Assembly: GCA_963820525.1 (NCBI GenBank)
Contig: CAWGAA010000001.1
Span: 768,001 to 832,000, forward strand
From: an uncultured Spirochaetota bacterium
GTDB lineage: Bacteria; Spirochaetota; Spirochaetia; SZUA-6; Fen-1364
Direction: 5' to 3'
DNA: 64,000 nucleotides
Shown: positions 5,466 to 64,000 of the stretch, piece by piece
Layout of the letters: each line of letters opens with the position of its first letter
How positions within the stretch are numbered: the first letter of the stretch is position 1
Notes under the pieces: generated by a model
Database searches by the model: none
Seen by the model: only the letters and a program-made list of their open reading frames with translations
What the model was told of the DNA's origin: nothing
Program-made: the position numbers and the translations under genes

Positions 5466-6551
5466 CCTGAATTCAACCTCGAAGTGCAACGATTCTTATT
5501 TTTCATGATACACCTCCTGGGGCGTTCTGTAGCCGTGCCGTTTTCTAGGCCTTGAGTTTAGGCTAAAGGCAATCTGCTCGCATAGAGCTTGAGTGACATC
5601 CCTCATGCAGGTTTTCTTTGGAAGATACTGACGGATCAAACCGTTTAGGTTCTCGTTGCTGCCTCGCTCCCAGGAATGATAAGGCGTTGCAAAGTAGCAT
5701 TTCAGTTCGGAATGATCCTCCAGGGTCCTGTAGTCATGGAATTCTGTACCGTTGTCCAAGGTGAGTGTCTTGAAGTTGGCTACGTTCTCCCTAATAGCCG
5801 GCAGTGCTGCCTCTGTTACTGAGGCTGCTGTTCTTGAGCTCATTTTCCTTATGATAGCAAATCCCGACTTTCGTTCCACCAGAGTGAGGATGCAGTGATG
5901 AAGGTCCCTGCCCATGACGGTGTCGCCCTCCCAATGACCCAATTCTTTACGAGTTTCAACCTCTGGAGGCCTCGTTGAAATATGGCGTTTTCCTGGGAGA
6001 ATTCCTCTTGAATCCCTTGAATTGTAACGTTTTCGCCGCAGTTTCGGCATGATTCGAAGGTTCTTAAATAGCGTTCCTCCATGTTTCTTATCGTTCAGGA
6101 TGTACTTGTAGATGGTCTCGTGACTGATTGTGAATGATCCATTCTTCTTCTGGTAAGCAGATATCTGTTCAGGGCTCCATTTCTCTTTCAAAAGAACAGT
6201 TACTTGCTGCATTTGTTCTGGGCTGAAGCGCGAACCGCGCCTTTCACGTCGCCGTCTTGCAGTTGAATAGCTTTGGGCAAGCTCAGCTCGGTACCTCAAG
6301 TCATGGTTAGTTCGGTTTCGATGAAGTTCCCTGCTGATCGTGCTAGCTGAGCGACCTAGCTCACGTGCAATGTCAGCTTTAGATCTTCGGCTTACTAAAA
6401 AAGCTGTTATGGTGTATCTTTCTTCTCGAGAGAGTTGGTGATAGTTATTCATGTATGAATCCCCTTTCTTGGCGGAAAATGGAGGCATACAATAATATCT
6501 CAGCTCTCTCATTTTTAATCCATATCGTTGCGCTTACTATTTGAACCTGCG
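5466..6551 (-). mobile_element. IS30-family element copy 1, at attC R''
   Basis: Ends CCTGAATTCAA...TTGAACCTGCG; flanks AAA/AAA. Confidence 0.93.
5496..6452 (-). CDS. IS30 transposase
   Basis: GHWEGDTV, TLDNGTEF and WERGSNENLNGLIRQYLPK motifs; start placed after an SD-like AGAAAGGGG. Confidence 0.93.
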   Translation of the reverse strand: MNNYHQLSREERYTITAFLVSRRSKADIARELGRSASTISRELHRNRTNHDLRYRAELAQSYSTARRRRERRGSRFSPEQMQQVTVLLKEKWSPEQISAYQKKNGSFTISHETIYKYILNDKKHGGTLFKNLRIMPKLRRKRYNSRDSRGILPGKRHISTRPPEVETRKELGHWEGDTVMGRDLHHCILTLVERKSGFAIIRKMSSRTAASVTEAALPAIRENVANFKTLTLDNGTEFHDYRTLEDHSELKCYFATPYHSWERGSNENLNGLIRQYLPKKTCMRDVTQALCEQIAFSLNSRPRKRHGYRTPQEVYHEK

Positions 6552-12997: not shown

Positions 12998-14083
12998 CCT
13001 GAATTCAACCTCGAAGTGCAACGATTCTTATTTTTCATGATACACCTCCTGGGGCGTTCTGTAGCCGTGCCGTTTTCTAGGCCTTGAGTTTAGGCTAAAG
13101 GCAATCTGCTCGCATAGAGCTTGAGTGACATCCCTCATGCAGGTTTTCTTTGGAAGATACTGACGGATCAAACCGTTTAGGTTCTCGTTGCTGCCTCGCT
13201 CCCAGGAATGATAAGGCGTTGCAAAGTAGCATTTCAGTTCGGAATGATCCTCCAGGGTCCTGTAGTCATGGAATTCTGTACCGTTGTCCAAGGTGAGTGT
13301 CTTGAAGTTGGCTACGTTCTCCCTAATAGCCGGCAGTGCTGCCTCTGTTACTGAGGCTGCTGTTCTTGAGCTCATTTTCCTTATGATAGCAAATCCCGAC
13401 TTTCGTTCCACCAGAGTGAGGATGCAGTGATGAAGGTCCCTGCCCATGACGGTGTCGCCCTCCCAATGACCCAATTCTTTACGAGTTTCAACCTCTGGAG
13501 GCCTCGTTGAAATATGGCGTTTTCCTGGGAGAATTCCTCTTGAATCCCTTGAATTGTAACGTTTTCGCCGCAGTTTCGGCATGATTCGAAGGTTCTTAAA
13601 TAGCGTTCCTCCATGTTTCTTATCGTTCAGGATGTACTTGTAGATGGTCTCGTGACTGATTGTGAATGATCCATTCTTCTTCTGGTAAGCAGATATCTGT
13701 TCAGGGCTCCATTTCTCTTTCAAAAGAACAGTTACTTGCTGCATTTGTTCTGGGCTGAAGCGCGAACCGCGCCTTTCACGTCGCCGTCTTGCAGTTGAAT
13801 AGCTTTGGGCAAGCTCAGCTCGGTACCTCAAGTCATGGTTAGTTCGGTTTCGATGAAGTTCCCTGCTGATCGTGCTAGCTGAGCGACCTAGCTCACGTGC
13901 AATGTCAGCTTTAGATCTTCGGCTTACTAAAAAAGCTGTTATGGTGTATCTTTCTTCTCGAGAGAGTTGGTGATAGTTATTCATGTATGAATCCCCTTTC
14001 TTGGCGGAAAATGGAGGCATACAATAATATCTCAGCTCTCTCATTTTTAATCCATATCGTTGCGCTTACTATTTGAACCTGCG
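12998..14083 (-). mobile_element. IS30 copy 2, at attC R''
   Basis: Same ends as copy 1; flanks CCG/CCG. Confidence 0.93.
13028..13984 (-). CDS. IS30 transposase
   Basis: Protein identical to copy 1. Confidence 0.93.
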   Translation of the reverse strand: MNNYHQLSREERYTITAFLVSRRSKADIARELGRSASTISRELHRNRTNHDLRYRAELAQSYSTARRRRERRGSRFSPEQMQQVTVLLKEKWSPEQISAYQKKNGSFTISHETIYKYILNDKKHGGTLFKNLRIMPKLRRKRYNSRDSRGILPGKRHISTRPPEVETRKELGHWEGDTVMGRDLHHCILTLVERKSGFAIIRKMSSRTAASVTEAALPAIRENVANFKTLTLDNGTEFHDYRTLEDHSELKCYFATPYHSWERGSNENLNGLIRQYLPKKTCMRDVTQALCEQIAFSLNSRPRKRHGYRTPQEVYHEK

Positions 14084-17722: not shown

Positions 17723-17787
17723 TTTTTTTGAGTTCTTGCATGATTCGGATGCAGGATAACATGCTGTTGGAGATTGTTTTAGAAATG

Positions 17788-19194
17788 TCAAGCAGTTTTT
17801 TTCGTGACCGCTTGTTTTTTCCTCCCCCCTTTTGTTCGCGTACCTTGAGCCTTGCAGTTCTTGACCTTCTTAGTACTCTTCGATTTATTTAATCTTGGGG
17901 ATGAGGGCGATATGTTGCTTTTGCGACTTTGATCGCCGCGGGTAACACCGCTTGCCATATCGCCTTCTCCCTCTTTCAGAATCTTTTGTCCCAAATCGTT
18001 TGCCTTCGATTCATTGAGGGCAGAAAGCTCACGAAAGATCACGCGTACAAGCGCTCGTGCCACCCTCTTAGTCGCCTCCAGGGGCCGCATTCCCGCCTTC
18101 ACAAGGTTCCTGTAATAACCCGCCAGGTGAGAGCCGGGATCGTAGAAGACCACGTTGCGCGCCGCCGTCATAAAAGCGTCCTTCAATCGATGGTTAAACA
18201 ACCGCGTAGGGATCATCATGGTGGTGTTGCCCGTTGTATGTTCCCTCATTCCCAAGCCACTGTAGCAGGCCAGGCTGTCCTCACGGGCGAATCGGCGAAT
18301 GTCGATGATCTCGGCAATCATCTTCGCCGCGGTGAGGGTCGCAATACCGCGGCGGCTTTTCAGGCACTGCACTGCGAGGTTCCCTTGAGTAAGGCTATCC
18401 AGCATCCCAAGAAGCTCGCTCTGCTCCCCTTTGAACCGCTCGATCTGTTGGGCGCTGTTTCTGATCACCAACGCGATCCCCGCGGAGATCGAGGGAAAGC
18501 TTTCGGCTGCCTCTCGCAGCTCCGCGATGAGCTCGCCCCGTCCCTTGTAGTTGCCTCCCCCCATCGCCTCCCGCATATCCGTCTGCGAAAGGCGTTTCCA
18601 TTCTCCAATGTCCGGCTTGGAGATAAAAAGAGTGAGAATCCCCTGGTTTTTGAGCACTTTTCCCCGCTGCTCGTTCTCCCTATTCTTGCCCCCGAGCAGC
18701 AGATACAGATCCGGGCAGGCGTACCGCAAAAGCTTCCACAGCCGGTTCATTTCCCCCGTCAGTTGATCGCTGAGGCTCTCCCAGCGGCGAGTAAGAGCTT
18801 GCAGCTCCATATCCGCGATCCACACACGCCGATACTGATCAAGCTTGCCCTGCGCCTCCAAGGCTAGAGCATACCTCGCAACCGATTCCGCGTCCCGCTC
18901 GTTATTCTTGTTCTGGCCCAGCACCGCCTTCCTGAACTTTTCCGTGTCCGCGGGTTTGAAGGAATGAAAGATCACTCCCCCTTCCCGCAGCGCCTTCTCG
19001 ATAGGTCGGCTCTGCCCATGAGTGCCTTCGATCCCCACGATCGGCTTCCCTTCGGCTTTCACCCAGCGAAGGAACTCACTCAAGCCATTCTGGCTCACCG
19101 AAAATCGTTTCGTAATCACCTGAGCTTTGCTGTCCTTGACCAACGCGCAGACAAATCCTGTGGAGTCCGGGTCTATTCCGATCGAACTGTTCAC
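17788..19194 (-). CDS. IS110 transposase / bridge recombinase
   Basis: GIDPD, GIEG and KNNERDA RuvC-like motifs; C-terminal RGIA...AEIIDIRRF...YSGL domain. Confidence 0.9.
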   Translation of the reverse strand: MNSSIGIDPDSTGFVCALVKDSKAQVITKRFSVSQNGLSEFLRWVKAEGKPIVGIEGTHGQSRPIEKALREGGVIFHSFKPADTEKFRKAVLGQNKNNERDAESVARYALALEAQGKLDQYRRVWIADMELQALTRRWESLSDQLTGEMNRLWKLLRYACPDLYLLLGGKNRENEQRGKVLKNQGILTLFISKPDIGEWKRLSQTDMREAMGGGNYKGRGELIAELREAAESFPSISAGIALVIRNSAQQIERFKGEQSELLGMLDSLTQGNLAVQCLKSRRGIATLTAAKMIAEIIDIRRFAREDSLACYSGLGMREHTTGNTTMMIPTRLFNHRLKDAFMTAARNVVFYDPGSHLAGYYRNLVKAGMRPLEATKRVARALVRVIFRELSALNESKANDLGQKILKEGEGDMASGVTRGDQSRKSNISPSSPRLNKSKSTKKVKNCKAQGTRTKGGRKKQAVTKKTA

Positions 19195-19227
19195 ACACTC
19201 ACCCCCAAATCCTTAAGGCGTATATAC

Positions 19228-19380
19228 CCGTTCCGTCATCCTTGTAGGGAGCCACTGCCTCGCGTGGAGGGCAGGCATTTGTTTTACATGACAAGAACGG
19301 CCCTTGTGGCGCTGGCAATCTCCAACAAGTCGTCTCCAGGACGGCAGCTGACAGCCCGAGCAACAACGCCACAAGGTGTT
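19228..19380 (-). ncRNA. Putative bridge RNA (target-binding loop 19302-19376, donor-binding loop 19228-19300); 5' end may extend further
   Basis: Two stem-closed loops. Their guide segments match attC (GTCAGCT, TGTTGGAG) and the IS ends (TAAAACAA, CCTACAAG). Confidence 0.85.
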
Positions 19381-20065
19381 CTCTATTCATACCGATCCAT
19401 GAGCGTCAATCCCCTTTTCCCACATATCCACAATCTGTTAGTCTCCCTCCCCCAGACCCCCTCCCTCGCTTACCGCCGTTGTCATTCTCTCCTCATGCAT
19501 ATATCCTACAAGTTGACGCCTTAGGTTGGTTTTACAACTGCTACCCTACTCCTTAGAACTATTTGTGCCGTGCTTTGGGCGGCGGCGCAACTCAACAGCG
19601 TCGTTATATCCACGCTAAAGAAATTCTTTGGGAGAATGTTTTGCTTGTTCTGTTTTGAATTACTCAAAGCAAATAAAGAATTCTCTTTCACAATCTTGCG
19701 GGTTTTACCTTGTTGAATTCTTTTGATACCTTTGCGCGGGCCATCTACGTTCCTGTTGGAACAGCTCGCGCACGTTAGCTAAAGGGGCATTAATTACCTT
19801 TTTTAGCATCACTTTCTTTCGCTTTGCCTGAATTCTATCATCAATCAACTAACCTGATATTTTATCCATATCGTGAAGCTTGTCCTTCGGCCCGCGCATA
19901 TTGGTCTGTTTCCGCGTAGATATAACATGCTGTTGGAGTTGACCGCCTAGGCGACGCTCCCCTACTTTCAACTACGCGCGGTAATGCATTTTGTGCTTGG
20001 ATGATTCGGGGCGGCAACTCAACAGCGTCGTTATATCCATCTAGATTTATATTGATTAGCGAAGA

Positions 20066-22629: not shown

Positions 22630-23715
22630 CCTGAATTCAACCTCGAAGTGCAACGATTCTTATTTTTCATGATACACCTCCTGGGGCGTTCTGTAGCCGT
22701 GCCGTTTTCTAGGCCTTGAGTTTAGGCTAAAGGCAATCTGCTCGCATAGAGCTTGAGTGACATCCCTCATGCAGGTTTTCTTTGGAAGATACTGACGGAT
22801 CAAACCGTTTAGGTTCTCGTTGCTGCCTCGCTCCCAGGAATGATAAGGCGTTGCAAAGTAGCATTTCAGTTCGGAATGATCCTCCAGGGTCCTGTAGTCA
22901 TGGAATTCTGTACCGTTGTCCAAGGTGAGTGTCTTGAAGTTGGCTACGTTCTCCCTAATAGCCGGCAGTGCTGCCTCTGTTACTGAGGCTGCTGTTCTTG
23001 AGCTCATTTTCCTTATGATAGCAAATCCCGACTTTCGTTCCACCAGAGTGAGGATGCAGTGATGAAGGTCCCTGCCCATGACGGTGTCGCCCTCCCAATG
23101 ACCCAATTCTTTACGAGTTTCAACCTCTGGAGGCCTCGTTGAAATATGGCGTTTTCCTGGGAGAATTCCTCTTGAATCCCTTGAATTGTAACGTTTTCGC
23201 CGCAGTTTCGGCATGATTCGAAGGTTCTTAAATAGCGTTCCTCCATGTTTCTTATCGTTCAGGATGTACTTGTAGATGGTCTCGTGACTGATTGTGAATG
23301 ATCCATTCTTCTTCTGGTAAGCAGATATCTGTTCAGGGCTCCATTTCTCTTTCAAAAGAACAGTTACTTGCTGCATTTGTTCTGGGCTGAAGCGCGAACC
23401 GCGCCTTTCACGTCGCCGTCTTGCAGTTGAATAGCTTTGGGCAAGCTCAGCTCGGTACCTCAAGTCATGGTTAGTTCGGTTTCGATGAAGTTCCCTGCTG
23501 ATCGTGCTAGCTGAGCGACCTAGCTCACGTGCAATGTCAGCTTTAGATCTTCGGCTTACTAAAAAAGCTGTTATGGTGTATCTTTCTTCTCGAGAGAGTT
23601 GGTGATAGTTATTCATGTATGAATCCCCTTTCTTGGCGGAAAATGGAGGCATACAATAATATCTCAGCTCTCTCATTTTTAATCCATATCGTTGCGCTTA
23701 CTATTTGAACCTGCG
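22630..23715 (-). mobile_element. IS30 copy 3, at attC R''
   Basis: Flanks CAA/CAA. Confidence 0.93.
22660..23616 (-). CDS. IS30 transposase
   Basis: Protein identical to copy 1. Confidence 0.93.
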   Translation of the reverse strand: MNNYHQLSREERYTITAFLVSRRSKADIARELGRSASTISRELHRNRTNHDLRYRAELAQSYSTARRRRERRGSRFSPEQMQQVTVLLKEKWSPEQISAYQKKNGSFTISHETIYKYILNDKKHGGTLFKNLRIMPKLRRKRYNSRDSRGILPGKRHISTRPPEVETRKELGHWEGDTVMGRDLHHCILTLVERKSGFAIIRKMSSRTAASVTEAALPAIRENVANFKTLTLDNGTEFHDYRTLEDHSELKCYFATPYHSWERGSNENLNGLIRQYLPKKTCMRDVTQALCEQIAFSLNSRPRKRHGYRTPQEVYHEK

Positions 23716-26283: not shown

Positions 26284-27369
26284 CCTGAATTCAACCTCGA
26301 AGTGCAACGATTCTTATTTTTCATGATACACCTCCTGGGGCGTTCTGTAGCCGTGCCGTTTTCTAGGCCTTGAGTTTAGGCTAAAGGCAATCTGCTCGCA
26401 TAGAGCTTGAGTGACATCCCTCATGCAGGTTTTCTTTGGAAGATACTGACGGATCAAACCGTTTAGGTTCTCGTTGCTGCCTCGCTCCCAGGAATGATAA
26501 GGCGTTGCAAAGTAGCATTTCAGTTCGGAATGATCCTCCAGGGTCCTGTAGTCATGGAATTCTGTACCGTTGTCCAAGGTGAGTGTCTTGAAGTTGGCTA
26601 CGTTCTCCCTAATAGCCGGCAGTGCTGCCTCTGTTACTGAGGCTGCTGTTCTTGAGCTCATTTTCCTTATGATAGCAAATCCCGACTTTCGTTCCACCAG
26701 AGTGAGGATGCAGTGATGAAGGTCCCTGCCCATGACGGTGTCGCCCTCCCAATGACCCAATTCTTTACGAGTTTCAACCTCTGGAGGCCTCGTTGAAATA
26801 TGGCGTTTTCCTGGGAGAATTCCTCTTGAATCCCTTGAATTGTAACGTTTTCGCCGCAGTTTCGGCATGATTCGAAGGTTCTTAAATAGCGTTCCTCCAT
26901 GTTTCTTATCGTTCAGGATGTACTTGTAGATGGTCTCGTGACTGATTGTGAATGATCCATTCTTCTTCTGGTAAGCAGATATCTGTTCAGGGCTCCATTT
27001 CTCTTTCAAAAGAACAGTTACTTGCTGCATTTGTTCTGGGCTGAAGCGCGAACCGCGCCTTTCACGTCGCCGTCTTGCAGTTGAATAGCTTTGGGCAAGC
27101 TCAGCTCGGTACCTCAAGTCATGGTTAGTTCGGTTTCGATGAAGTTCCCTGCTGATCGTGCTAGCTGAGCGACCTAGCTCACGTGCAATGTCAGCTTTAG
27201 ATCTTCGGCTTACTAAAAAAGCTGTTATGGTGTATCTTTCTTCTCGAGAGAGTTGGTGATAGTTATTCATGTATGAATCCCCTTTCTTGGCGGAAAATGG
27301 AGGCATACAATAATATCTCAGCTCTCTCATTTTTAATCCATATCGTTGCGCTTACTATTTGAACCTGCG
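26284..27369 (-). mobile_element. IS30 copy 4, at attC R''
   Basis: Flanks CCA/CCA. Confidence 0.93.
26314..27270 (-). CDS. IS30 transposase
   Basis: Protein identical to copy 1. Confidence 0.93.
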   Translation of the reverse strand: MNNYHQLSREERYTITAFLVSRRSKADIARELGRSASTISRELHRNRTNHDLRYRAELAQSYSTARRRRERRGSRFSPEQMQQVTVLLKEKWSPEQISAYQKKNGSFTISHETIYKYILNDKKHGGTLFKNLRIMPKLRRKRYNSRDSRGILPGKRHISTRPPEVETRKELGHWEGDTVMGRDLHHCILTLVERKSGFAIIRKMSSRTAASVTEAALPAIRENVANFKTLTLDNGTEFHDYRTLEDHSELKCYFATPYHSWERGSNENLNGLIRQYLPKKTCMRDVTQALCEQIAFSLNSRPRKRHGYRTPQEVYHEK

Positions 27370-29884: not shown

Positions 29885-30970
29885 CCTGAATTCAACCTCG
29901 AAGTGCAACGATTCTTATTTTTCATGATACACCTCCTGGGGCGTTCTGTAGCCGTGCCGTTTTCTAGGCCTTGAGTTTAGGCTAAAGGCAATCTGCTCGC
30001 ATAGAGCTTGAGTGACATCCCTCATGCAGGTTTTCTTTGGAAGATACTGACGGATCAAACCGTTTAGGTTCTCGTTGCTGCCTCGCTCCCAGGAATGATA
30101 AGGCGTTGCAAAGTAGCATTTCAGTTCGGAATGATCCTCCAGGGTCCTGTAGTCATGGAATTCTGTACCGTTGTCCAAGGTGAGTGTCTTGAAGTTGGCT
30201 ACGTTCTCCCTAATAGCCGGCAGTGCTGCCTCTGTTACTGAGGCTGCTGTTCTTGAGCTCATTTTCCTTATGATAGCAAATCCCGACTTTCGTTCCACCA
30301 GAGTGAGGATGCAGTGATGAAGGTCCCTGCCCATGACGGTGTCGCCCTCCCAATGACCCAATTCTTTACGAGTTTCAACCTCTGGAGGCCTCGTTGAAAT
30401 ATGGCGTTTTCCTGGGAGAATTCCTCTTGAATCCCTTGAATTGTAACGTTTTCGCCGCAGTTTCGGCATGATTCGAAGGTTCTTAAATAGCGTTCCTCCA
30501 TGTTTCTTATCGTTCAGGATGTACTTGTAGATGGTCTCGTGACTGATTGTGAATGATCCATTCTTCTTCTGGTAAGCAGATATCTGTTCAGGGCTCCATT
30601 TCTCTTTCAAAAGAACAGTTACTTGCTGCATTTGTTCTGGGCTGAAGCGCGAACCGCGCCTTTCACGTCGCCGTCTTGCAGTTGAATAGCTTTGGGCAAG
30701 CTCAGCTCGGTACCTCAAGTCATGGTTAGTTCGGTTTCGATGAAGTTCCCTGCTGATCGTGCTAGCTGAGCGACCTAGCTCACGTGCAATGTCAGCTTTA
30801 GATCTTCGGCTTACTAAAAAAGCTGTTATGGTGTATCTTTCTTCTCGAGAGAGTTGGTGATAGTTATTCATGTATGAATCCCCTTTCTTGGCGGAAAATG
30901 GAGGCATACAATAATATCTCAGCTCTCTCATTTTTAATCCATATCGTTGCGCTTACTATTTGAACCTGCG
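29885..30970 (-). mobile_element. IS30 copy 5, at attC R''
   Basis: Flanks AGA/AGA. Confidence 0.93.
29915..30871 (-). CDS. IS30 transposase
   Basis: Protein identical to copy 1. Confidence 0.93.
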   Translation of the reverse strand: MNNYHQLSREERYTITAFLVSRRSKADIARELGRSASTISRELHRNRTNHDLRYRAELAQSYSTARRRRERRGSRFSPEQMQQVTVLLKEKWSPEQISAYQKKNGSFTISHETIYKYILNDKKHGGTLFKNLRIMPKLRRKRYNSRDSRGILPGKRHISTRPPEVETRKELGHWEGDTVMGRDLHHCILTLVERKSGFAIIRKMSSRTAASVTEAALPAIRENVANFKTLTLDNGTEFHDYRTLEDHSELKCYFATPYHSWERGSNENLNGLIRQYLPKKTCMRDVTQALCEQIAFSLNSRPRKRHGYRTPQEVYHEK

Positions 30971-40903: not shown

Positions 40904-41989
40904 CCTGAATTCAACCTCGAAGTGCAACGATTCTTATTTTTCATGATACACCTCCTGGGGCGTTCTGTAGCCGTGCCGTTTTCTAGGCCTTGAGTTTAGG
41001 CTAAAGGCAATCTGCTCGCATAGAGCTTGAGTGACATCCCTCATGCAGGTTTTCTTTGGAAGATACTGACGGATCAAACCGTTTAGGTTCTCGTTGCTGC
41101 CTCGCTCCCAGGAATGATAAGGCGTTGCAAAGTAGCATTTCAGTTCGGAATGATCCTCCAGGGTCCTGTAGTCATGGAATTCTGTACCGTTGTCCAAGGT
41201 GAGTGTCTTGAAGTTGGCTACGTTCTCCCTAATAGCCGGCAGTGCTGCCTCTGTTACTGAGGCTGCTGTTCTTGAGCTCATTTTCCTTATGATAGCAAAT
41301 CCCGACTTTCGTTCCACCAGAGTGAGGATGCAGTGATGAAGGTCCCTGCCCATGACGGTGTCGCCCTCCCAATGACCCAATTCTTTACGAGTTTCAACCT
41401 CTGGAGGCCTCGTTGAAATATGGCGTTTTCCTGGGAGAATTCCTCTTGAATCCCTTGAATTGTAACGTTTTCGCCGCAGTTTCGGCATGATTCGAAGGTT
41501 CTTAAATAGCGTTCCTCCATGTTTCTTATCGTTCAGGATGTACTTGTAGATGGTCTCGTGACTGATTGTGAATGATCCATTCTTCTTCTGGTAAGCAGAT
41601 ATCTGTTCAGGGCTCCATTTCTCTTTCAAAAGAACAGTTACTTGCTGCATTTGTTCTGGGCTGAAGCGCGAACCGCGCCTTTCACGTCGCCGTCTTGCAG
41701 TTGAATAGCTTTGGGCAAGCTCAGCTCGGTACCTCAAGTCATGGTTAGTTCGGTTTCGATGAAGTTCCCTGCTGATCGTGCTAGCTGAGCGACCTAGCTC
41801 ACGTGCAATGTCAGCTTTAGATCTTCGGCTTACTAAAAAAGCTGTTATGGTGTATCTTTCTTCTCGAGAGAGTTGGTGATAGTTATTCATGTATGAATCC
41901 CCTTTCTTGGCGGAAAATGGAGGCATACAATAATATCTCAGCTCTCTCATTTTTAATCCATATCGTTGCGCTTACTATTTGAACCTGCG
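40904..41989 (-). mobile_element. IS30 copy 6, at attC R''
   Basis: Flanks GGG/GGG. Confidence 0.93.
40934..41890 (-). CDS. IS30 transposase
   Basis: Protein identical to copy 1. Confidence 0.93.
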   Translation of the reverse strand: MNNYHQLSREERYTITAFLVSRRSKADIARELGRSASTISRELHRNRTNHDLRYRAELAQSYSTARRRRERRGSRFSPEQMQQVTVLLKEKWSPEQISAYQKKNGSFTISHETIYKYILNDKKHGGTLFKNLRIMPKLRRKRYNSRDSRGILPGKRHISTRPPEVETRKELGHWEGDTVMGRDLHHCILTLVERKSGFAIIRKMSSRTAASVTEAALPAIRENVANFKTLTLDNGTEFHDYRTLEDHSELKCYFATPYHSWERGSNENLNGLIRQYLPKKTCMRDVTQALCEQIAFSLNSRPRKRHGYRTPQEVYHEK

Positions 41990-50155: not shown

Positions 50156-51241
50156 CCTGAATTCAACCTCGAAGTGCAACGATTCTTATTTTTCATGATA
50201 CACCTCCTGGGGCGTTCTGTAGCCGTGCCGTTTTCTAGGCCTTGAGTTTAGGCTAAAGGCAATCTGCTCGCATAGAGCTTGAGTGACATCCCTCATGCAG
50301 GTTTTCTTTGGAAGATACTGACGGATCAAACCGTTTAGGTTCTCGTTGCTGCCTCGCTCCCAGGAATGATAAGGCGTTGCAAAGTAGCATTTCAGTTCGG
50401 AATGATCCTCCAGGGTCCTGTAGTCATGGAATTCTGTACCGTTGTCCAAGGTGAGTGTCTTGAAGTTGGCTACGTTCTCCCTAATAGCCGGCAGTGCTGC
50501 CTCTGTTACTGAGGCTGCTGTTCTTGAGCTCATTTTCCTTATGATAGCAAATCCCGACTTTCGTTCCACCAGAGTGAGGATGCAGTGATGAAGGTCCCTG
50601 CCCATGACGGTGTCGCCCTCCCAATGACCCAATTCTTTACGAGTTTCAACCTCTGGAGGCCTCGTTGAAATATGGCGTTTTCCTGGGAGAATTCCTCTTG
50701 AATCCCTTGAATTGTAACGTTTTCGCCGCAGTTTCGGCATGATTCGAAGGTTCTTAAATAGCGTTCCTCCATGTTTCTTATCGTTCAGGATGTACTTGTA
50801 GATGGTCTCGTGACTGATTGTGAATGATCCATTCTTCTTCTGGTAAGCAGATATCTGTTCAGGGCTCCATTTCTCTTTCAAAAGAACAGTTACTTGCTGC
50901 ATTTGTTCTGGGCTGAAGCGCGAACCGCGCCTTTCACGTCGCCGTCTTGCAGTTGAATAGCTTTGGGCAAGCTCAGCTCGGTACCTCAAGTCATGGTTAG
51001 TTCGGTTTCGATGAAGTTCCCTGCTGATCGTGCTAGCTGAGCGACCTAGCTCACGTGCAATGTCAGCTTTAGATCTTCGGCTTACTAAAAAAGCTGTTAT
51101 GGTGTATCTTTCTTCTCGAGAGAGTTGGTGATAGTTATTCATGTATGAATCCCCTTTCTTGGCGGAAAATGGAGGCATACAATAATATCTCAGCTCTCTC
51201 ATTTTTAATCCATATCGTTGCGCTTACTATTTGAACCTGCG
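50156..51241 (-). mobile_element. IS30 copy 7, at attC R'' (non-matching flanks)
   Basis: Flanks GGA / GAG. Confidence 0.93.
50186..51142 (-). CDS. IS30 transposase
   Basis: Protein identical to copy 1. Confidence 0.93.
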   Translation of the reverse strand: MNNYHQLSREERYTITAFLVSRRSKADIARELGRSASTISRELHRNRTNHDLRYRAELAQSYSTARRRRERRGSRFSPEQMQQVTVLLKEKWSPEQISAYQKKNGSFTISHETIYKYILNDKKHGGTLFKNLRIMPKLRRKRYNSRDSRGILPGKRHISTRPPEVETRKELGHWEGDTVMGRDLHHCILTLVERKSGFAIIRKMSSRTAASVTEAALPAIRENVANFKTLTLDNGTEFHDYRTLEDHSELKCYFATPYHSWERGSNENLNGLIRQYLPKKTCMRDVTQALCEQIAFSLNSRPRKRHGYRTPQEVYHEK

Positions 51242-53457: not shown

Positions 53458-54543
53458 CCTGAATTCAACCTCGAAGTGCAACGATTCTTATTTTTCATGA
53501 TACACCTCCTGGGGCGTTCTGTAGCCGTGCCGTTTTCTAGGCCTTGAGTTTAGGCTAAAGGCAATCTGCTCGCATAGAGCTTGAGTGACATCCCTCATGC
53601 AGGTTTTCTTTGGAAGATACTGACGGATCAAACCGTTTAGGTTCTCGTTGCTGCCTCGCTCCCAGGAATGATAAGGCGTTGCAAAGTAGCATTTCAGTTC
53701 GGAATGATCCTCCAGGGTCCTGTAGTCATGGAATTCTGTACCGTTGTCCAAGGTGAGTGTCTTGAAGTTGGCTACGTTCTCCCTAATAGCCGGCAGTGCT
53801 GCCTCTGTTACTGAGGCTGCTGTTCTTGAGCTCATTTTCCTTATGATAGCAAATCCCGACTTTCGTTCCACCAGAGTGAGGATGCAGTGATGAAGGTCCC
53901 TGCCCATGACGGTGTCGCCCTCCCAATGACCCAATTCTTTACGAGTTTCAACCTCTGGAGGCCTCGTTGAAATATGGCGTTTTCCTGGGAGAATTCCTCT
54001 TGAATCCCTTGAATTGTAACGTTTTCGCCGCAGTTTCGGCATGATTCGAAGGTTCTTAAATAGCGTTCCTCCATGTTTCTTATCGTTCAGGATGTACTTG
54101 TAGATGGTCTCGTGACTGATTGTGAATGATCCATTCTTCTTCTGGTAAGCAGATATCTGTTCAGGGCTCCATTTCTCTTTCAAAAGAACAGTTACTTGCT
54201 GCATTTGTTCTGGGCTGAAGCGCGAACCGCGCCTTTCACGTCGCCGTCTTGCAGTTGAATAGCTTTGGGCAAGCTCAGCTCGGTACCTCAAGTCATGGTT
54301 AGTTCGGTTTCGATGAAGTTCCCTGCTGATCGTGCTAGCTGAGCGACCTAGCTCACGTGCAATGTCAGCTTTAGATCTTCGGCTTACTAAAAAAGCTGTT
54401 ATGGTGTATCTTTCTTCTCGAGAGAGTTGGTGATAGTTATTCATGTATGAATCCCCTTTCTTGGCGGAAAATGGAGGCATACAATAATATCTCAGCTCTC
54501 TCATTTTTAATCCATATCGTTGCGCTTACTATTTGAACCTGCG
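53458..54543 (-). mobile_element. IS30 copy 8, at attC R'' (flanks GAG/AAG)
   Basis: Same ends as copy 1. Confidence 0.93.
53488..54444 (-). CDS. IS30 transposase
   Basis: Protein identical to copy 1. Confidence 0.93.
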   Translation of the reverse strand: MNNYHQLSREERYTITAFLVSRRSKADIARELGRSASTISRELHRNRTNHDLRYRAELAQSYSTARRRRERRGSRFSPEQMQQVTVLLKEKWSPEQISAYQKKNGSFTISHETIYKYILNDKKHGGTLFKNLRIMPKLRRKRYNSRDSRGILPGKRHISTRPPEVETRKELGHWEGDTVMGRDLHHCILTLVERKSGFAIIRKMSSRTAASVTEAALPAIRENVANFKTLTLDNGTEFHDYRTLEDHSELKCYFATPYHSWERGSNENLNGLIRQYLPKKTCMRDVTQALCEQIAFSLNSRPRKRHGYRTPQEVYHEK

Positions 54544-55371: not shown

Positions 55372-55643
55372 ATCTACACTGCATTCTAACTGAACTTTAT
55401 TTATAAGAGGTCAAATTTTGAATATAAATATTGAAATCCTGAAGATATAACATGCGGTTGGAGTTGACCGCCTAGGCTACGCTCCGTGACTCATAACTAC
55501 GCGCGGTAAAGCCTATTGTACTTGGATGAATCGGGGCGGCAACTCAACAGCGTCGTTAGGCAGCCCCAAATTAGCAGAAATAGCCTTTTCCTAGCAGTGC
55601 TCTTTGTTCTTGACAGAGAATCAATTTATGGTTACATTAAGAT

Positions 55644-56237: not shown

Positions 56238-56991
56238 AAACTATATGTGCTTTCGTGTCTGCCCAACATGCTGTTGGAGTTGACCCCTTAGCTTACGTTT
56301 GGAAAGTACAGCATACATTGCTAAACTGCCACTACCCTGCTTCGGGCGGCGGGGCAACTAAACAGCGTCGTTATCTGGCTATAAGCGGTTATATGATTTG
56401 GAATACGCGATATTCCATACTACCGACCGTGGACAAGAAAGACTTCCTCTGTCCTTCTTGCAGCCCATGAGCATTGCGGGCAAGCTGATCCTGGTTTCTC
56501 TCTTACAGGAAAAAATACGGCACGGTAGCTTTTCCTAATAGAGTCCATGCGAACAATCAGTGACAAATAGCTGCAATCGCTCAATCCCCCATAACCGCAT
56601 GGCCAGTCATCATCCCACAATCCTTTGGTATCGAGACGCTTCGTTCATGCTCCCCGACAATGCAGCACGTTTCGGATCCATTAGCCTCAGTGCATGGAGA
56701 ACCCAGTGTCGTACTGCTAGCTCTGAGACTTGCATGGCGTACCGTATTGGCATAACATTCAGAGCAGAACAATATATTAAAGGATAGTAAATGAATTATA
56801 ATCCAAATGTGTCACCTAATTTCGCTCTTTGGCTGGAACTTGATGAAGCAGAGCGCATAACGACTGTAATTGCGTATCACGAACGCAACAGAGAAAAACT
56901 TCCCAATCAAAGGCTGCATGCCACCATCCACGTAATAATAGAGAACCAGCTAGCCGAGCAGATCCCGGCGGTCACTGACGCGCTGACAAGG

Positions 56992-60482: not shown

Positions 60483-61189
60483 CTAAGGGAAAGAGAATGG
60501 AGCTTAAAGCCGTGGTGAGCCATGATGACGGCCATACGGTGAGCACCTACGAAGGGCAGGAGTGTGAGAGCTGCCCTGAGCGCGAGAAGTGCACCAAAGG
60601 GAAGAAGAGAACGATTGCTGTCGACAGTCGTGAGCCATTTCGAGAGAAGATGAGAGAGAAGCTGCGCAGCGATCGCGGGCGGGAAACGTACATGAAGCGC
60701 CAAGGGATCGTCGAACCGGTGCACGGGGACGATCAGCAGAACAAGGGATGGAGACAACACCACCTGCGAGGCGAAGCGAAAGCGGCGCTTGAGTTCATGC
60801 TGGTACGAATCGCAACGAACCTGGGAAAGATCGCGAGATATCGGGCGATGCGGTTGATGGCGATCCCAATATGAAGGGCAACTGAGGGAACGATAGGGAA
60901 AAACATGATCGAATAAGGTTAATGGGCCGCGATAGCTCGCGGGCAGCGAAAGCTGGATAATGGCTCGATGCGAATTAAGGGAGGCCGGGAAAACCTGGAT
61001 AGGTTCTCAGACAGCCTCAATTACTTAATAGTCCGTTAGAATAGATTATTGTAACTTTCATAGAGAAGAATGGTGAATCAATAGAATTGATGCAAGAATT
61101 ACCTATTATTGATTATGGCAATTGAGAGACGAGATCCGCGTTTGAATAATATGTATTTCTCGATTGCGATGAACCTAAAGGAGGAAACA

Positions 61190-61477
61190 ATGGCAGACTA
61201 TACCTTTGATGGAAAGAGCTTAAGGAATCGCTCTGGACAAAAGATGGGAGAAATTGATCGAAACTCCATTAGAGCTTGGAACAGCGCCAGACTTGGCGAA
61301 ATTGATCGTAAAAACATTAGGGATGCTCATGGGAAGAAAGTCGTTGAATTTGATGGAAAAAACGTCAAAGATGATATGGGCAACAAAATTACAACCATTC
61401 AGGAAATACAAAAGACTATCGAAGGTGAGGGCGGAATCTCCTTAGTCGCGATGTGGTACTTTTTTGTAAAGAAATAA
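61190..61477 (+). CDS. Hypothetical protein with short GEID repeats
   Basis: Strong SD AAGGAGG; 95 aa. Confidence 0.7.
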   Translation: MADYTFDGKSLRNRSGQKMGEIDRNSIRAWNSARLGEIDRKNIRDAHGKKVVEFDGKNVKDDMGNKITTIQEIQKTIEGEGGISLVAMWYFFVKK

Positions 61478-61479
61478 AT

Positions 61480-62102
61480 TGTGATAGTTCAGATTTGATC
61501 TGACACTCTCTTTCTGGTTCCTATACTACGCTGTCCGTCGGATGGTATCCAATCATCTTCTCCTTCGCAACGTGAAACGTTTCCTGAAACGTCTGCATCG
61601 GGGTTTTGCCGTAGCAGTATTTCCCTGAATGGGGTCGTTGCTCGTTGTACTCCTTGATCCACACATCAACGTCAACTTGAAGCTCTTCAATTGATGTATA
61701 GATCTTTTTTCGGAACGCAACCTGGTAGAACTCATTGAGGACCGTCTTCTGGAACCTCTCGCAAATGCCATTGCTCTGGGGTGACTTCACTCTGGTCTTG
61801 GAGTTATCGATGTTCTCTACGGCCAGGTACAATTGATACTCATGATTCTCCCGATTGCCGCAGTATTCGATTCCTCGAGGATCCCATGCGTATCGAAGAA
61901 GGGAATGACCCGGTCGTTTCCCAGCTCCTGGGCCAATGTTGGCAATCCTACCTTGTTCTTAATGATCTTCTCTTCGGTTGTCATCTGACACCTCCTGGCG
62001 TGCGCGTTTGGGCATGGCTGCATGAATCTGGGCGCCGATGGCCTCTGGAATCCATTTGCGAACGACTCTGGACATGATCGTATCTAATTACCCTGCTCTA
62101 CA
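61480..62102 (-). pseudogene. Internally deleted IS481-family remnant
   Basis: TGT...ACA ends; fragments MTTEEKIIKNKVGL and SPQSNGICERF..YNEQRPHSG. Confidence 0.8.
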
Positions 62103-62182
62103 AACGACGCATAAAAGACTCCTGCTCATACGCCACTTCTTCTCCTCACTAATTCTTCTCCTTTCAGTCATATGCAATTATT

Positions 62183-63460
62183 TTAGACCCAGAAATCCTT
62201 GTTTATCTTGGTTGAGCTTGATAACAAGCCATCATGGCCTTCATTTGGAATGCTGCGGGCCAAACATTTATCATCCTTGCAGATTTCATTAAGTCTCCTG
62301 TAGACCACTCGAACAATAGCGCGCGCCACCCTTTTTCTCGCCTCCATGGGACGCATCCCGCCATCAACATGGTTTCTGTGATAGCAGGCGATACGAGATT
62401 CAGGGTTATAAAACACGACAGCCCCGGCTGCGGTCATGAATGCATCTTTCAGCCGGTGATTAAATGACTGAGTATGCACCATTCTGACGGCACCTCCCGT
62501 TGAATGTTCTTTCATTCCAAGACCGCCATAACTAGCGAGACTATCCTCCTTTGAAAATCTCCTAATATCTATGATCTCAGCAACCATTGTCGATGCAGTA
62601 ATAAGCCCAATTCCTCTGAGTTGTCGCAGAGACTGTATTGGTAGGCTTTTTCTGCTGATTGAATTCAGCATTTTAATAAGTTCGATCTGCTCGCGTTTAT
62701 AGTGCTCGATTTTCGAAGCACTGGCTCTGATCATAAAGGCTATCGTGGGCGAGAGTGAGGGGATGCATTGCATGACGCTCTCTAGTCCTCGAATGAATTC
62801 GTTTCGCCCCTTGTAATTTCCAGCCCCCATTGCCTCGAGCAGTTGACGATCAGAGAGGTGCTTCCACTCACCTACGTCCGGAATTGAGATCAGAAGCGTG
62901 AGGATTCCCCTGTTCTTCAGCACATTTCCGCCGCATCCCGCATCGGAGAGCTTTCCGCCTAGAAATAGATATAAATCAGGGGAGGCATGCCGTAGTATTT
63001 TCCAGAGACGATTCACTTCCGCTGTGATCTCCCGACTGAGGCTTTTATGCTCACGTGTGAGCAATTGAAGCTCAGAGTCTGCGAACCAAAGTCGTCGGTG
63101 CTGCTGCAGCTTTCCCTGCGATTCCAAGGCAAGTGCGTATCGCGCCACGGACTCCGCATCCCGCTCGTTGTTCTTGTTTTGCCCTAGAACCGCTTTCCTG
63201 AACTTCTCAACGTCAGCCGGCTTGAACGAATAGAACTCGACACGAGCATTTCGCAGCGCTTCTTCTATTGGCCTGCTCTGGCCATGGCTTCCTTCTATTG
63301 CTACAATCAGCCCCTCCTCCGCCCCCGCCCATTGATTAAATTCACTGAGACTCTTCGCCGTTACCAGAAATCTCTTCGTCACCACTCTATCATTTTTACC
63401 ACGTACCAGAGCGCAGACAAACCCCGTTGAGTCAGGATCGATGCCAAGCGCGCTATTCAC
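62183..63460 (-). CDS. IS110 transposase paralog
   Basis: Clear homolog of 17788-19194 (GIDPDSTGFVCALV, FRKAVLGQNKNNERDAESVARYALALE). Confidence 0.88.
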   Translation of the reverse strand: MNSALGIDPDSTGFVCALVRGKNDRVVTKRFLVTAKSLSEFNQWAGAEEGLIVAIEGSHGQSRPIEEALRNARVEFYSFKPADVEKFRKAVLGQNKNNERDAESVARYALALESQGKLQQHRRLWFADSELQLLTREHKSLSREITAEVNRLWKILRHASPDLYLFLGGKLSDAGCGGNVLKNRGILTLLISIPDVGEWKHLSDRQLLEAMGAGNYKGRNEFIRGLESVMQCIPSLSPTIAFMIRASASKIEHYKREQIELIKMLNSISRKSLPIQSLRQLRGIGLITASTMVAEIIDIRRFSKEDSLASYGGLGMKEHSTGGAVRMVHTQSFNHRLKDAFMTAAGAVVFYNPESRIACYHRNHVDGGMRPMEARKRVARAIVRVVYRRLNEICKDDKCLARSIPNEGHDGLLSSSTKINKDFWV

Positions 63461-63501
63461 TACCGCACCTCCCGCATCTTCATATCAGATACGCCAATCA
63501 C

Positions 63502-63640
63502 CCGCTTCCGTTGGGAGTTCATTCGTTTTCTGCAGATATGCCCCATCAGGGAGAGCAAAAGCGGTCCCCTGTGGCGTTGGCAATCTCCAACAAGTCGCTT
63601 CTATCGACATCTGACACAAAAGCATCAACGCCACAAGGGG
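63502..63640 (-). ncRNA. Diverged bridge-RNA homolog (target loop kept, donor loop degenerate)
   Basis: CTGTGGCGTTGGCAATCTCCAACAAGTCG...CTGACA...CAACGCCACAAGG is homologous to 19302-19376. Confidence 0.7.
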
Positions 63641-64000
63641 TCCTCTGCACACGATATGCTATTTTTCGGCATATATTTCACACGAGCATCAAACTATGCT
63701 ATATATCGGGCAGCATATGTCCTAGAATTAGAAATCATTATTATGCCGCCCAAAGACAACATCAACTCCCACCGCGCTTGGTTTTCGTCCTTACTCATAC
63801 GGCGCAACGACGATTCTCCTGCTCTTTCGGGCGCTCGCGAGTCAGGACGCGGCTGCGGCAGGAGGCAGAGAGCAAAAGCAGGATGAGCGCGGACGAATAC
63901 GACAGCTTTCGCGATAGTGGCAGTCAGCGTGCCTTCACCAACTCCGAGGCGATCAAGCAGCCAAGCCGGACATTCTCGTGAAAGAGAGCAACGTTTGTTG

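Follow-up and report, generated by a model that had tools for sequence, protein, structure and literature searches.

A probably immobilised IS110-group element, derived from an attC-targeting insertion sequence, at the far border of a Spirochaetota integron

The insertion sequences ISPa21, ISKpn4 and ISPst6 reportedly belong to an IS1111-attC group, for which Tetu & Holmes (2008) and Post & Hall (2009) are cited. Piv/MooV-type invertases, relatives of IS110 transposases, are recombinases that occur as single copies at a fixed place in the chromosome. In the sections of Siddiquee et al. (2024; PMC11187229) that treat them, IS1111-attC elements have a DEDD transposase, insert at one end of an attC site and encode their own guide RNA; the RNA of the IS1111 group lies downstream of the gene, and the group has subterminal inverted repeats. 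The published accounts considered here attribute attC targeting to IS1111-group elements; the sequences in our comparison set show a clade of the IS110 group, with its RNA upstream of the gene, that targets attC. IS110-group bridge-RNA elements of the IS621 type are the subject of Durrant et al. (2024; PMC11208160) and Hiraizumi et al. (2024 and 2026).

Here we describe a member of this clade in a 64,000-nt stretch of DNA from an uncultured Spirochaetota bacterium (GCA_963820525.1, contig CAWGAA010000001.1, positions 768,001 to 832,000), which we call the window; coordinates without a prefix refer to it. The window contains an intact element, copy 1, and a paralog of that element, copy 2. As far as the IS621 type is set out by Durrant et al. 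(PMC11208160), copy 2 resembles it in its DEDD-type N-terminal and Transposase_20 C-terminal domains, in a non-coding RNA upstream of the gene, and in a left guide that has the sense of the target top strand and a right guide that is complementary to it, overlapping a CT core. On the same footing, copy 2 differs from the IS621 type in having no recognisable donor guides, degenerate ends, no CT core at either junction and flanks that mismatch its target loop. In contrast to the IS1111-attC group as described by Siddiquee et al., copy 2 has its RNA ahead of the start codon, the arrangement of the IS110 group.

Genomic setting, recombinase gene and family rules

The integron integrase gene lies at C1:682092-683030 (TIGR02249, 410 bits against a cut-off of 265), and 169 of the 179 attC rows found with blastn fall within C1:683761-823558, all of them on the plus strand. 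The context is a sedentary chromosomal integron of about 140 kb. The last recognisable attC of the array, at 56264-56383 on the plus strand, scores 65.5 bits and lies 5.8 kb before copy 2; the neighbouring attC at 55443-55572 scores 124.9 bits. At the distal end of this integron is an IS graveyard, in which copy 2 lies with broken transposase genes adjacent to it. One of these is a genome-unique remnant of an rve_3-type (IS481/IS3-like) transposase gene at 61521-62094 on the minus strand, about 80 nt beyond the right end of copy 2, with an outer boundary near 62094 that was judged by eye. A beta-flower-like ORF at 61109-61477 is 77% identical to a cassette paralog at C1:727955-728249, and a search by way of this paralog for the remainder of a cassette or attC around copy 2 did not find one. 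On the other side lies the 3' end of a housekeeping gene of the Indigoidine_A / pseudouridine-5'-phosphate glycosidase family (63924-64000 on the minus strand, running beyond the window), which forms the chromosomal border of the array region.

The recombinase ORF of copy 2, of the IS110-family RNA-guided transposase type, occupies 62183-63460 on the minus strand. An earlier sequence-only reading of the window had reported an intact ORF of 425 amino acids at this locus, and this is confirmed: the ORF starts with GTG and contains no internal stop codon. Both Pfam domains expected of the IS110 family, the DEDD/RuvC-like N-terminal DEDD_Tnp_IS110 (PF01548, 60.7 bits) and the C-terminal Transposase_20 (PF02371, 59.7 bits), are present in the protein, each above its cut-off. 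The NCBIfam model NF033542 scores copy 2 at 138.3 bits, just under the cut-off of 140, and copy 1 at 140.6 bits. A single-sequence search of solved structures with copy 2 returned no match; the IS621 transposase (8wt6) was reached by the family profile only, which aligns to it with an E value of 2.6e-9. The protein lacks a basic C-terminal tail of about 45 amino acids that is present in relatives. At columns invariant in 20 other aligned proteins it has 7 private changes, a number that is not elevated, given that those 20 proteins themselves have 0 to 9.

We derived rules for the family from fetched relatives, using 81 3' ends for the right end (RE) and 50 relatives for the right flank. In these relatives a bridge RNA of about 155 nt is encoded upstream of the recombinase gene. 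The RE is near-invariant and finishes in CTAAAACAATCT followed by the flank, and the left end (LE) consists of CT followed by TGTAAGATAT. Within the donor loop are found TAAAACA, with the sense of the RE, and TTACAAG, the reverse complement of the core plus LE. In 35 of the 50 relatives, the right flank begins with 5 nt that are the reverse complement of the right target guide. Copy 1 (17771-19512 on the minus strand, with its gene at 17788-19194) follows all of these rules and splits an attC at GTCAACT then CCAAC. Copies 1 and 2 share 61% protein identity, the right target guide and the RNA scaffold; unlike copy 2, copy 1 has a complete donor loop, canonical ends and a split attC. A quick tree groups the two in a single clade (SH-aLRT 98), where 13 of 14 rows carry a guide of the attC type, and the terminal branch of copy 2 in it measures 0.88 against a median of 0.12.

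Bridge RNA and element ends of copy 2

A covariance model of the upstream bridge RNA of the family, built from 53 sequences, matches 63499-63640 on the minus strand at 58.7 bits with an E value of 1e-13, and the match of the copy 2 RNA is therefore beyond chance. The same model scores the copy 1 RNA at 150.8 bits and 77 untruncated RNAs, out of 90 loci, at 65.8 to 162.8 bits, a range in which 53 of the 77 are the training rows of the model itself. Of the copy 2 RNA, the model aligns the target loop and the donor-loop base; the donor-loop interior alone fails to align. Copy 2 thus has upstream of its gene a structured RNA with a target-binding loop, as is expected of the IS110 group. Rfam gave no family at gathering score anywhere in the 64-kb window.

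The target-binding loop of copy 2, at 63566-63640 on the minus strand, aligns in full to the covariance model. It comprises a 14-bp closing stem (CCCCTTGTGGCGTTG / CAACGCCACAGGGG), which appears in the centroid fold, an inner hairpin and both guides, and it retains all 15 of the family-invariant target-loop columns. Reading of the sequence places the left guide, TGTCAGAT, at 63609-63616 and the right guide, TTGTTGGAG followed by ATTG, at 63581-63593, both on the minus strand; the plus-strand sequence AATCTCCAACA at 63582-63592 yields the guide TGTTGGAG at 63585-63592 on the minus strand. The sequence-only reading had described a conserved target loop with this last guide, a left guide and a stem, and all of these were found in place. 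Of one of its two alternative inferences, an immobilised recombinase that still recognises attC and might remodel the array, the recognition of attC is half borne out: the right guide is intact and agrees with the attC right half at 7-8 of 9 positions, but the left guide is a poorer fit. The latter agrees with the left half of the array attC sites at 4-6 of 9 positions (copy 1: 6-8 of 9), has two more mismatches to the array attC consensus than the left guide of copy 1, one of them in the core, and reads AT at the core where most relatives have CT. No exact site for the full guide pair of copy 2 exists in the genome. The pattern GTCAG..CCAAC has three matches in the genome and none in the array, and with the AT core it has no match. 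Complementarity between the ATTG that follows the right guide and the family RE suggests a handshake-like extension.

The remnant of the donor-binding loop was located by the covariance-model alignment at 63502-63564 on the minus strand. It is bracketed by CCGCTT (63559-63564) and AAGCGG (63502-63507), which form a basal stem that has been retained through two double, compensatory changes. The interior, at 63508-63558, is unalignable to the family, with 47 unaligned nucleotides replacing 57 model positions. Only 8 of 23 invariant donor-loop columns are retained (Fisher p 3e-5 against the target loop), and no relative departs from the family at more than one of these columns. Since the donor loop is conserved even among relatives at 42-45% protein identity, its loss in copy 2 is not simple divergence. 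Neither CTTGTAGG nor its complement is present in the donor-loop interior of copy 2. Exact occurrences of CTTGTAGG in the window are confined to 19241-19248 (plus strand) and 19505-19512 (minus strand), both within copy 1, and the sole match near copy 2 with at most one mismatch is the target guide itself. The absence of one donor-loop segment had been noticed from the sequence, correctly, although this understated the loss, as both guides and the upper stem are missing; copy 2 has no donor-loop guides that match its own RE and LE. One difference between strains falls in the donor-loop interior and changes a U.G pair to a C.G pair in a possible hairpin. Together with the compensatory stem changes, this hints that the RNA may still be under constraint. 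We also observed 12 identical nucleotides shared by the donor-loop base and the flank near 63868-63879; identities of at least 10 nt arose in 8 of 2000 shuffles.

Direct reading identifies an LE remnant, TAGGACATATGC, at 63713-63724 on the minus strand, whose counterpart in copy 1, TAGGATATATGC, lies two bases inside the copy 1 LE. The remnant lacks the terminal TG and the CT core; the motif was chosen post hoc and its significance is approximate. The distance from the LE to the loop is about 84 nt in copy 2, against about 135 nt, and an LE profile aligns to copy 2 over only the last 22 nt adjoining the loop and to nothing beyond. Comparison with the 3' ends of 81 relatives identifies an RE remnant, CTAAAATAATTG, at 62175-62186 on the minus strand, which agrees with the near-invariant family RE at 9 of 12 positions. 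TG stands in place of the core CT, and the upstream TTGAC box is lost. The stop codon of the ORF falls inside this remnant, with about 8 nt from the stop to the end of the remnant. Copy 2 therefore has no pair of conserved ends with the same core dinucleotide. A promoter-like site was flagged at 63765-63737 on the minus strand, outside the LE remnant; the promoter scans are uninformative, as they flagged the expected internal promoter in neither copy 1 nor copy 2.

We also considered whether copy 2 has ends of its own that match its altered donor loop, which the sequence-only reading had named as a finding that would count against it. The ends proved degenerate, and no such match was found. 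Between the donor-loop interior and the RE zone in the same sense, the longest match is 6 nt, which was equalled in 1391 of 2000 shuffles. Between the interior and the reverse complement of the LE zone it is 8 nt, equalled in 234 of 2000 shuffles; this match joins the 3' side of the loop to 63764-63771, at about the usual LE-to-loop distance of the family and 45 nt outside the LE remnant.

The flanks of copy 2 likewise depart from the family rules. On the right the guide predicts CT then CCAAC, and the actual sequence is TG then CATAT; neither flank is complementary to the target guides. The same reading had seen no attC halves beside copy 2, and profile searches bear this out: a full attC profile finds nothing past 56383 on either strand at E<=10, and half-site profiles, which do find the flanks of copy 1 at 18.0 and 33.5 bits, have no match, up to E<=1000, within 61980-62200 and 63650-63950. 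The stretch 63745-63785 weakly resembles an attC arm by eye and was rejected, as neither the full nor the half-site profiles give it a score.

Copy number, strains and relatives

Copy 2 is present once in the genome, and the populations that carry it are from wetland and sediment. Contigs from the metagenome of another study, X1, span both of its junctions at about 99.5% identity, and the junctions are unchanged in them; multiple copies or sites, by which mobility is recognised in the IS110 group, are thus not seen. Among 423 matches in 5.8 billion protein clusters, none exceeds 63% identity save one 99% cluster (P0001). In the genome set, family members at E<=1e-30 occur in 7 of 41 genomes, its own genome counted, and the best of them outside its own genome is 57% identical near full length and 63% over a fragment. 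No orthologue of copy 2 was found in 40 related genomes, a set without congeneric genomes. Plasmids gave only matches below 30% identity, and viral contigs gave no match. The adjoining housekeeping gene is present in 20 of 31 related genomes at about 66-72% identity; the 246 nt separating it from copy 2 have no match in the related genomes, and the ancestral empty site was not recovered.

The strain differences in copy 2 amount to 3 synonymous and 4 non-synonymous changes, one of the latter at a near-invariant proline. The X1 contigs account for 3 synonymous and 3 non-synonymous differences, and P0001 has 4 amino-acid differences. In the adjoining housekeeping gene, 1 synonymous difference stands to 3 non-synonymous ones. 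These counts are too few to show selection on copy 2.

Explanations of the locus and their meaning

Copy 2 probably derives from an attC-targeting IS110-group insertion sequence and has become immobile. A decaying or immobilised element had been proposed from the sequence, and the proposal is well supported by the unalignable loop interior, the degenerate ends, the single copy and the identical X1 junctions. In relatives, one loop of the RNA pairs with the target, namely one arm of an integron attC around the CT core, and the other loop pairs with the joined ends of the element. Missing or altered in copy 2 are the two guides and upper stem of the donor loop, the core and terminal bases at LE and RE, and the -35-like box of the RE, which would be part of a junction promoter. 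Since the parts by which copy 2 would recognise itself as a donor are lost or altered, it would be unable to excise or insert itself, and it appears fixed as one copy amid broken IS elements, between the last cassettes and the housekeeping gene. We infer that it once inserted into an attC whose traces have since disappeared, and that without a donor half provided in trans it is now inert.

An active element whose donor loop and ends have been re-programmed together, in a rare and unsampled lineage, is a very unlikely explanation. The ORF is intact, the basal stem of the donor loop is kept, and the 8-nt reverse-complement match lies near the family LE-to-loop distance, but this match is not significant and falls outside the LE remnant, and the same-sense match to the RE zone is not above chance. 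The flanks mismatch the target guides, unlike those of 35 of 50 relatives, copy 2 is single and without near relatives in the protein clusters save the one 99% cluster, and the donor loop is otherwise conserved down to 42-45% protein identity. It is equally improbable that copy 2 is a recently dead copy under no selection, one that lost its donor side in one or two rearrangements and has kept an open ORF only for lack of time. The strain polymorphism is compatible with neutrality, and the location is an IS graveyard beside broken transposase genes. However, the lesions are varied, with substitutions in the RE, two deletions at the LE, the changed loop interior and the deletion of the C-terminal tail, and the lack of close relatives argues against recent arrival from an active population.

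Some observations sit uneasily with an immobilised derivative. The ORF, which makes up 82% of the element, is open despite at least five lesions in about 300 nt of donor-side sequence, a pattern not expected if decay is neutral. The protein has no raised number of private changes at invariant columns (7 against 0-9), and the double changes in the basal stem, the U.G to C.G difference and the unexplained 12-nt flank identity likewise count against it. Because the damage is confined to the donor side while the ORF is open, copy 2 may have kept a trans-acting or domesticated role. We consider it rather unlikely, as a full explanation, that selection keeps the recombinase and a target-loop-only RNA, either for attC x attC deletion or inversion by the pairing of two target loops or for helping copy 1. 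In its favour, damage avoids the ORF and the target loop (15/15 against 8/23 invariant columns), the donor-loop basal stem has compensatory changes, the long protein branch is not enriched in changes at invariant sites, another population also has the locus fixed, and copy 1 shares its right guide and its handshake-like ATTG with copy 2. Piv/MooV-type invertases provide a precedent for such domestication; unlike them, copy 2 retains a bridge-RNA target loop, and neither an inversion substrate nor paired sites came to light for it. Two preprints count in favour of a retained function: according to one, a truncated target-loop RNA cooperates with a full-length bridge RNA in a second pathway of transposition (bioRxiv 2025, 10.1101/2025.10.25.684509), and according to the other, a substrate that matches half of the bridge RNA is enough for recombination (bioRxiv 2026, 10.64898/2026.08.31.748434). 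Against it, an exact genomic site for the guide pair is missing and the three matches to GTCAG..CCAAC lie outside the array, the left guide fits attC worse than that of copy 1, and the 3:4 ratio of synonymous to non-synonymous strain differences, with a near-invariant proline changed, stands beside 1:3 in the housekeeping gene. The specific form in which the host or integron keeps a "half-programmed" bridge recombinase, with an attC-aimed target-loop-only RNA, for attC x attC recombination or for aid to copy 1 is unlikely. If true, it would allow integrase-independent deletion or inversion of cassettes via two attC sites or, alternatively, provide a second target loop as an aid to the intact paralog in moving by direct transfer.

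Bridge RNAs are studied as programmable recombination tools, and natural variants reveal which of their parts can be lost or separated. In the probable immobilised derivative described here, the enzyme and the target half of the RNA survive, and what is gone is the donor half, together with the two ends and the junction promoter box. If copy 2 is a mere relic, it still records how such an element dies, its donor side being lost before the rest, and it also marks where a very large Spirochaetota integron has its distal border. Should the gene and its half-RNA be maintained, copy 2 would be a natural case of target-loop-only guidance on integron attC sites.

Guide architecture of the attC-targeting relatives

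We compared copy 2, the IS110-family recombinase ORF at 62183-63460 (minus strand) with its upstream bridge-RNA region, with loci of its relatives: four from species genomes, 79 from metagenomes, plus loci of related genomes. The relatives gathered by protein similarity are Spirochaetota MAGs. Their 3' ends are near-invariant (cTTGACnTnnCTAAAACAATCT, with the flank directly after it, in the 81 rows listed), and in many of these rows the flank reads CCAACGATTTGTTA..., the reverse complement of the attC start. The 5' ends begin with CT, followed by TGTAAGATAT... and a conserved G-rich block. The upstream RNAs were aligned (53 non-identical sequences, 180 columns) after removal of exact duplicates and of loci L026, L046 and L068/L069, in which the 5' part is replaced; RNAalifold predicted 32 pairs, with compensatory changes in 13. 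Set against the element ends, this alignment shows that the 5' side of the second (donor) loop, TAAAACA, has the same sense as the right element end (RE), and that its 3' side, TTACAAG, is the reverse complement of the CT core plus the left element end (LE). In the first (target) loop, a variable 5-mer on the 3' side precedes AGATTGCC. Of 50 members, 35 have a right flank whose first 5 nt are the reverse complement of this 5-mer, and this agreement holds for many different sequences. The family shares this guide architecture with IS621, for which left guides in top-strand sense, complementary right guides and inclusion of the core are described (PMC11208160). Likewise, the position of its RNA, upstream of the gene, is the one given for IS110-type elements in PMC11187229. 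Read by eye on joined family ends, the conserved TTGAC box of RE is 17 nt away from a TAGGAT/TAAGAT in LE (for example, 17771-17795 joined to 19498-19512 in copy 1); together these would make up a putative junction promoter on a circular form.

Copy 1, the intact paralog (468-aa protein, 17788-19194, minus strand), follows all of the family rules for ends, guides and flanks. The element, of the IS110 group, is complete (17771-19512, minus strand), has its bridge RNA upstream and splits an attC at GTCAACT then CCAAC. On one side the flank ...GGCGTCAACT adjoins TGTAGGATAT..., on the other ...AAAACAATCT adjoins CCAACAGCATGTTAT, and the flanks score 33.5 and 18.0 bits against profiles of the two attC halves. 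An attC-type right guide is found in the loci of 21 of 66 related proteins, many of which adjoin CCAACGATTTGTTA flanks (loci L021-L099). Judged by these guides and flanks, copy 1 and these relatives are an IS110-group clade that targets attC. The attC-targeting elements named in two papers belong to the IS1111 group and have the RNA downstream (PMC11208160, PMC11187229), in contrast to the upstream RNA of the copy 1 clade. Among the literature matches listed, no paper describes an IS110-group attC-targeting clade, although one may still be in print.

Recombinase and bridge RNA of copy 2

The sequence-only reading had described copy 2 as an intact ORF with a conserved target loop and a donor loop that has lost a segment, and our analysis bears out this description. 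The ORF is open, encodes 425 aa and contains both IS110-family Pfam domains. Its product is 61% identical to that of copy 1 and has private changes at seven columns that are invariant in 20 other aligned proteins (0-9 for the others). At the positions that we take to be the IS621 catalytic motifs, the residues of copy 2 are those of the family. At what is presumably the third acidic residue of the IS621 DEDD motif, the profile aligns a family-wide invariant N (alignment A2, copy 2 position 98), a property of the whole family that is not peculiar to copy 2. About 140 nt coding for the basic C-terminal tail are gone, and because of this the ORF extends into the RE remnant.

Upstream of the ORF, the minus-strand stem CCCCTTGTGGCGTTG...CAACGCCACAGGGG is preserved. 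When copy 2 is added to the family RNA alignment, its target loop retains 15 of 15 invariant columns, whereas its donor loop retains 8 of 23 (Fisher p 3e-5). Within the CCGCTT...AAGCGG stem of the donor loop (63502-63564) there is no sequence resembling CTTGTAGG or its complement; the two exact occurrences of this octamer in the window, 19241-19248 and 19505-19512, belong to copy 1. In a leave-one-out comparison every family member deviates at no more than one invariant donor-loop column, and the donor loop is kept even among members with 42-45% protein identity, indicating that its loss from copy 2 is a specific event and not general divergence. Scored with a covariance model built on the family RNA (155 positions), copy 1 reaches 150.8 bits and copy 2 58.7 bits (E 1e-13). 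In copy 2 the entire first loop aligns, as does the second loop's basal stem, and the second-loop interior consists of 47 unaligned bases where the model has 57 positions. Applied to 90 loci, the model yields 82 forward matches; the 77 RNAs uncut by contig ends, 53 of them training rows, score 65.8-162.8 bits. The two lowest-scoring RNAs, those of L026 and L046 (65.8 and 88.9 bits), lack the first loop, not the second. These two loci, together with L068 and L069, for which there is no covariance-model match, are altered in the opposite half, with the 5' part of the target loop replaced and the donor loop intact. No paper among the literature matches listed reports a natural donor-loop-less bridge RNA; one may still be in print.

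The proposal that copy 2 still recognises attC is supported in part, better for its right guide than for its left. The right guide TTGTTGGAG (63585-63593, minus strand) matches 120 array attC sites at 7-8 of 9 positions, equal to copy 1. The left guide TGTCAGAT (63609-63616, minus strand) matches the same sites at 4-6 of 9 positions, compared with 6-8 for copy 1, and one extra mismatch falls in the core, AT for CT. Some relatives that sit at several different sites (e.g., L055 and L061) likewise have a left guide whose first core base is not C, so this core mismatch may be tolerated. The genome contains GTCA[AG]CTCCAAC at 55 sites, 50 of them within the array, and no exact site for copy 2's own guide pair.

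Ends, flanks and integron setting of copy 2

At the RE position, copy 2 reads CTAAAATAATTG (62175-62186), which matches at 9 of 12 positions and has TG where the family has its CT core; the TTGAC box immediately before it is lost. Against copy 1, a profile made from 43 left ends of the family reaches 118.7 bits; in copy 2 it aligns only over the 22 nt adjoining the loop. By eye and post hoc, TAGGACATATGC (63713-63724) resembles TAGGATATATGC, which lies two bases inside the LE of copy 1. Taken as an LE remnant, TAGGACATATGC would lack the terminal TG and the CT core and would lie ~84 nt from the loop instead of ~135. As the sequence-only reading had noted, attC halves are absent: the half-site profiles give no score on either flank, even with the threshold at E<=1000. 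Where the right guide predicts CT then CCAAC, the actual flank is TG then CATAT. We also compared the donor-loop interior with the element's ends. The longest same-sense match to the RE zone is 6 nt (equalled in 1391 of 2000 shuffles), and for the LE zone the best reverse-complement match is 8 nt long and lies at 63764-63771, outside the LE remnant by 45 nt (equalled in 234 of 2000 shuffles). The altered parts therefore do not fit each other, and copy 2 does not have ends of its own matching its altered donor loop, the discovery of which the sequence-only reading had named as a refutation of its interpretation. A stretch of 12 bases is identical, in the same sense, at the 5' base of the donor loop (~63552-63563) and at ~63868-63879 near the housekeeping gene (minus strand); a match of at least 10 nt was reached by 8 of 2000 shuffles.

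The genome measures 5.05 Mb in four contigs, and the window is positions 768001-832000 of contig CAWGAA010000001.1 (C1). An integron integrase is encoded at C1:682092-683030 (minus strand; TIGR02249, 410 bits, cut-off 265), and blastn seeded with one attC from the window returned 179 rows, 169 of which lie within C1:683761-823558, all on the plus strand. The integrase position and the attC spread identify the window as the distal portion of a ~140-kb sedentary chromosomal integron. This very large integron (C1:682092-824383; integrase and ~170 attC matches over ~140 kb) has tandem cassettes of ~390 bp, and window positions 1-56383 are its distal part. A second integron integrase, at C1:1954228-1955157, is followed by a few attC matches. 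An attC profile made from 120 full-length sites placed the last two sites at 55443-55572 and 56264-56383, and found none beyond 56383 in a search up to 66000 on either strand (E<=10, filters off). The interval from the last attC to a housekeeping gene of the Indigoidine_A family (63924 onward) contains transposase genes that are broken or nested (DUF772 type, DDE_Tnp_1_4, DDE_Tnp_1_6 and rve_3), one cassette-like ORF and copy 2; G+C is higher beyond ~63900. A beta-flower-like ORF at 61109-61477 (Pfam matches weak and below cut-off) has 77% DNA identity to the cassette ORF C1:727955-728249 and is probably the array's last cassette gene, separated from its attC by an rve_3-type remnant. The window also holds eight 100% identical IS30-type elements of 1086 bp (338-aa transposase with HTH_38 and rve), at 5466-6551, 12998-14083, 22630-23715, 26284-27369, 29885-30970, 40904-41989, 50156-51241 and 53458-54543. 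Each lies 5-6 nt upstream of an attC's TAACATG start, mostly with a 3-nt duplication, and from these positions the element looks like an IS30-family member with attC-adjacent target specificity.

Strain comparison and fate of copy 2

Copy 2 is present once in the genome. The stretch is partly present in 20 runs from 14 studies, none recorded as RNA. Within the copy 2 locus (L001), one contig from another study's metagenome spans 796-2303, reaching into the ORF from the IS remnant next to it, with 7 differences, and a second spans 2305-4275, extending from the ORF across the RNA and the LE region as far as the housekeeping gene, with 10 differences. These contigs bridge both sides, indicating that the same junctions exist in a ~99.5% identical strain. 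The substitutions in the ORF (three synonymous, three non-synonymous) and in the adjacent housekeeping gene (one synonymous, three non-synonymous) are too few to decide on selection. Among 5.8 billion protein clusters, 423 relatives were found at E<=1e-20, all at most 63% identical except one 99% cluster, which differs from copy 2 at four residues, one of them a near-invariant proline. A quick maximum-likelihood tree of 66 proteins places copy 2 in a 14-row clade (SH-aLRT 98) in which the right guide is of attC type in 13 rows, copy 1 included. Copy 2 sits on a terminal branch of 0.88 (median 0.12), and a branch of this length makes its placement uncertain.

By the family rules copy 2 cannot recognise itself as a donor, and it shows no sign of mobility, which argues that it is immobilised. 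We are highly confident of its immobility as such; that it is an immobilised derivative is the best explanation, which we consider reasonably probable. Copy 2 is derived from IS110-group bridge-RNA elements and works like them, but it fails their defining donor-side features, and this failure leads us to class it as a degenerate derivative, not a functional member. Such a copy may simply be dying, as suggested by its location in an IS graveyard, by a left guide that has drifted away from attC, by strain polymorphism that looks neutral and by the absence of signs of expression. It may also be kept: at least five separate lesions fall in ~300 nt of donor-side sequence, yet the 1278-nt ORF is open, the target loop is unharmed and the basal stem of the donor loop has been preserved through two double changes.

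According to two preprints, a truncated target-loop RNA cooperates with a full bridge RNA (10.1101/2025.10.25.684509), and substrates matching just half of the RNA recombine (10.64898/2026.08.31.748434); these offer a possible mechanism for a half RNA. Copies 1 and 2 lie 44 kb apart and share their right guide and the ATTG that follows the core, so a helper role of copy 2 for copy 1 is conceivable on purely inferential grounds. Degenerate IS copies are commonplace; copy 2 is somewhat unusual for its clean asymmetry, in which the enzyme and the target half are retained and the donor half is gone.
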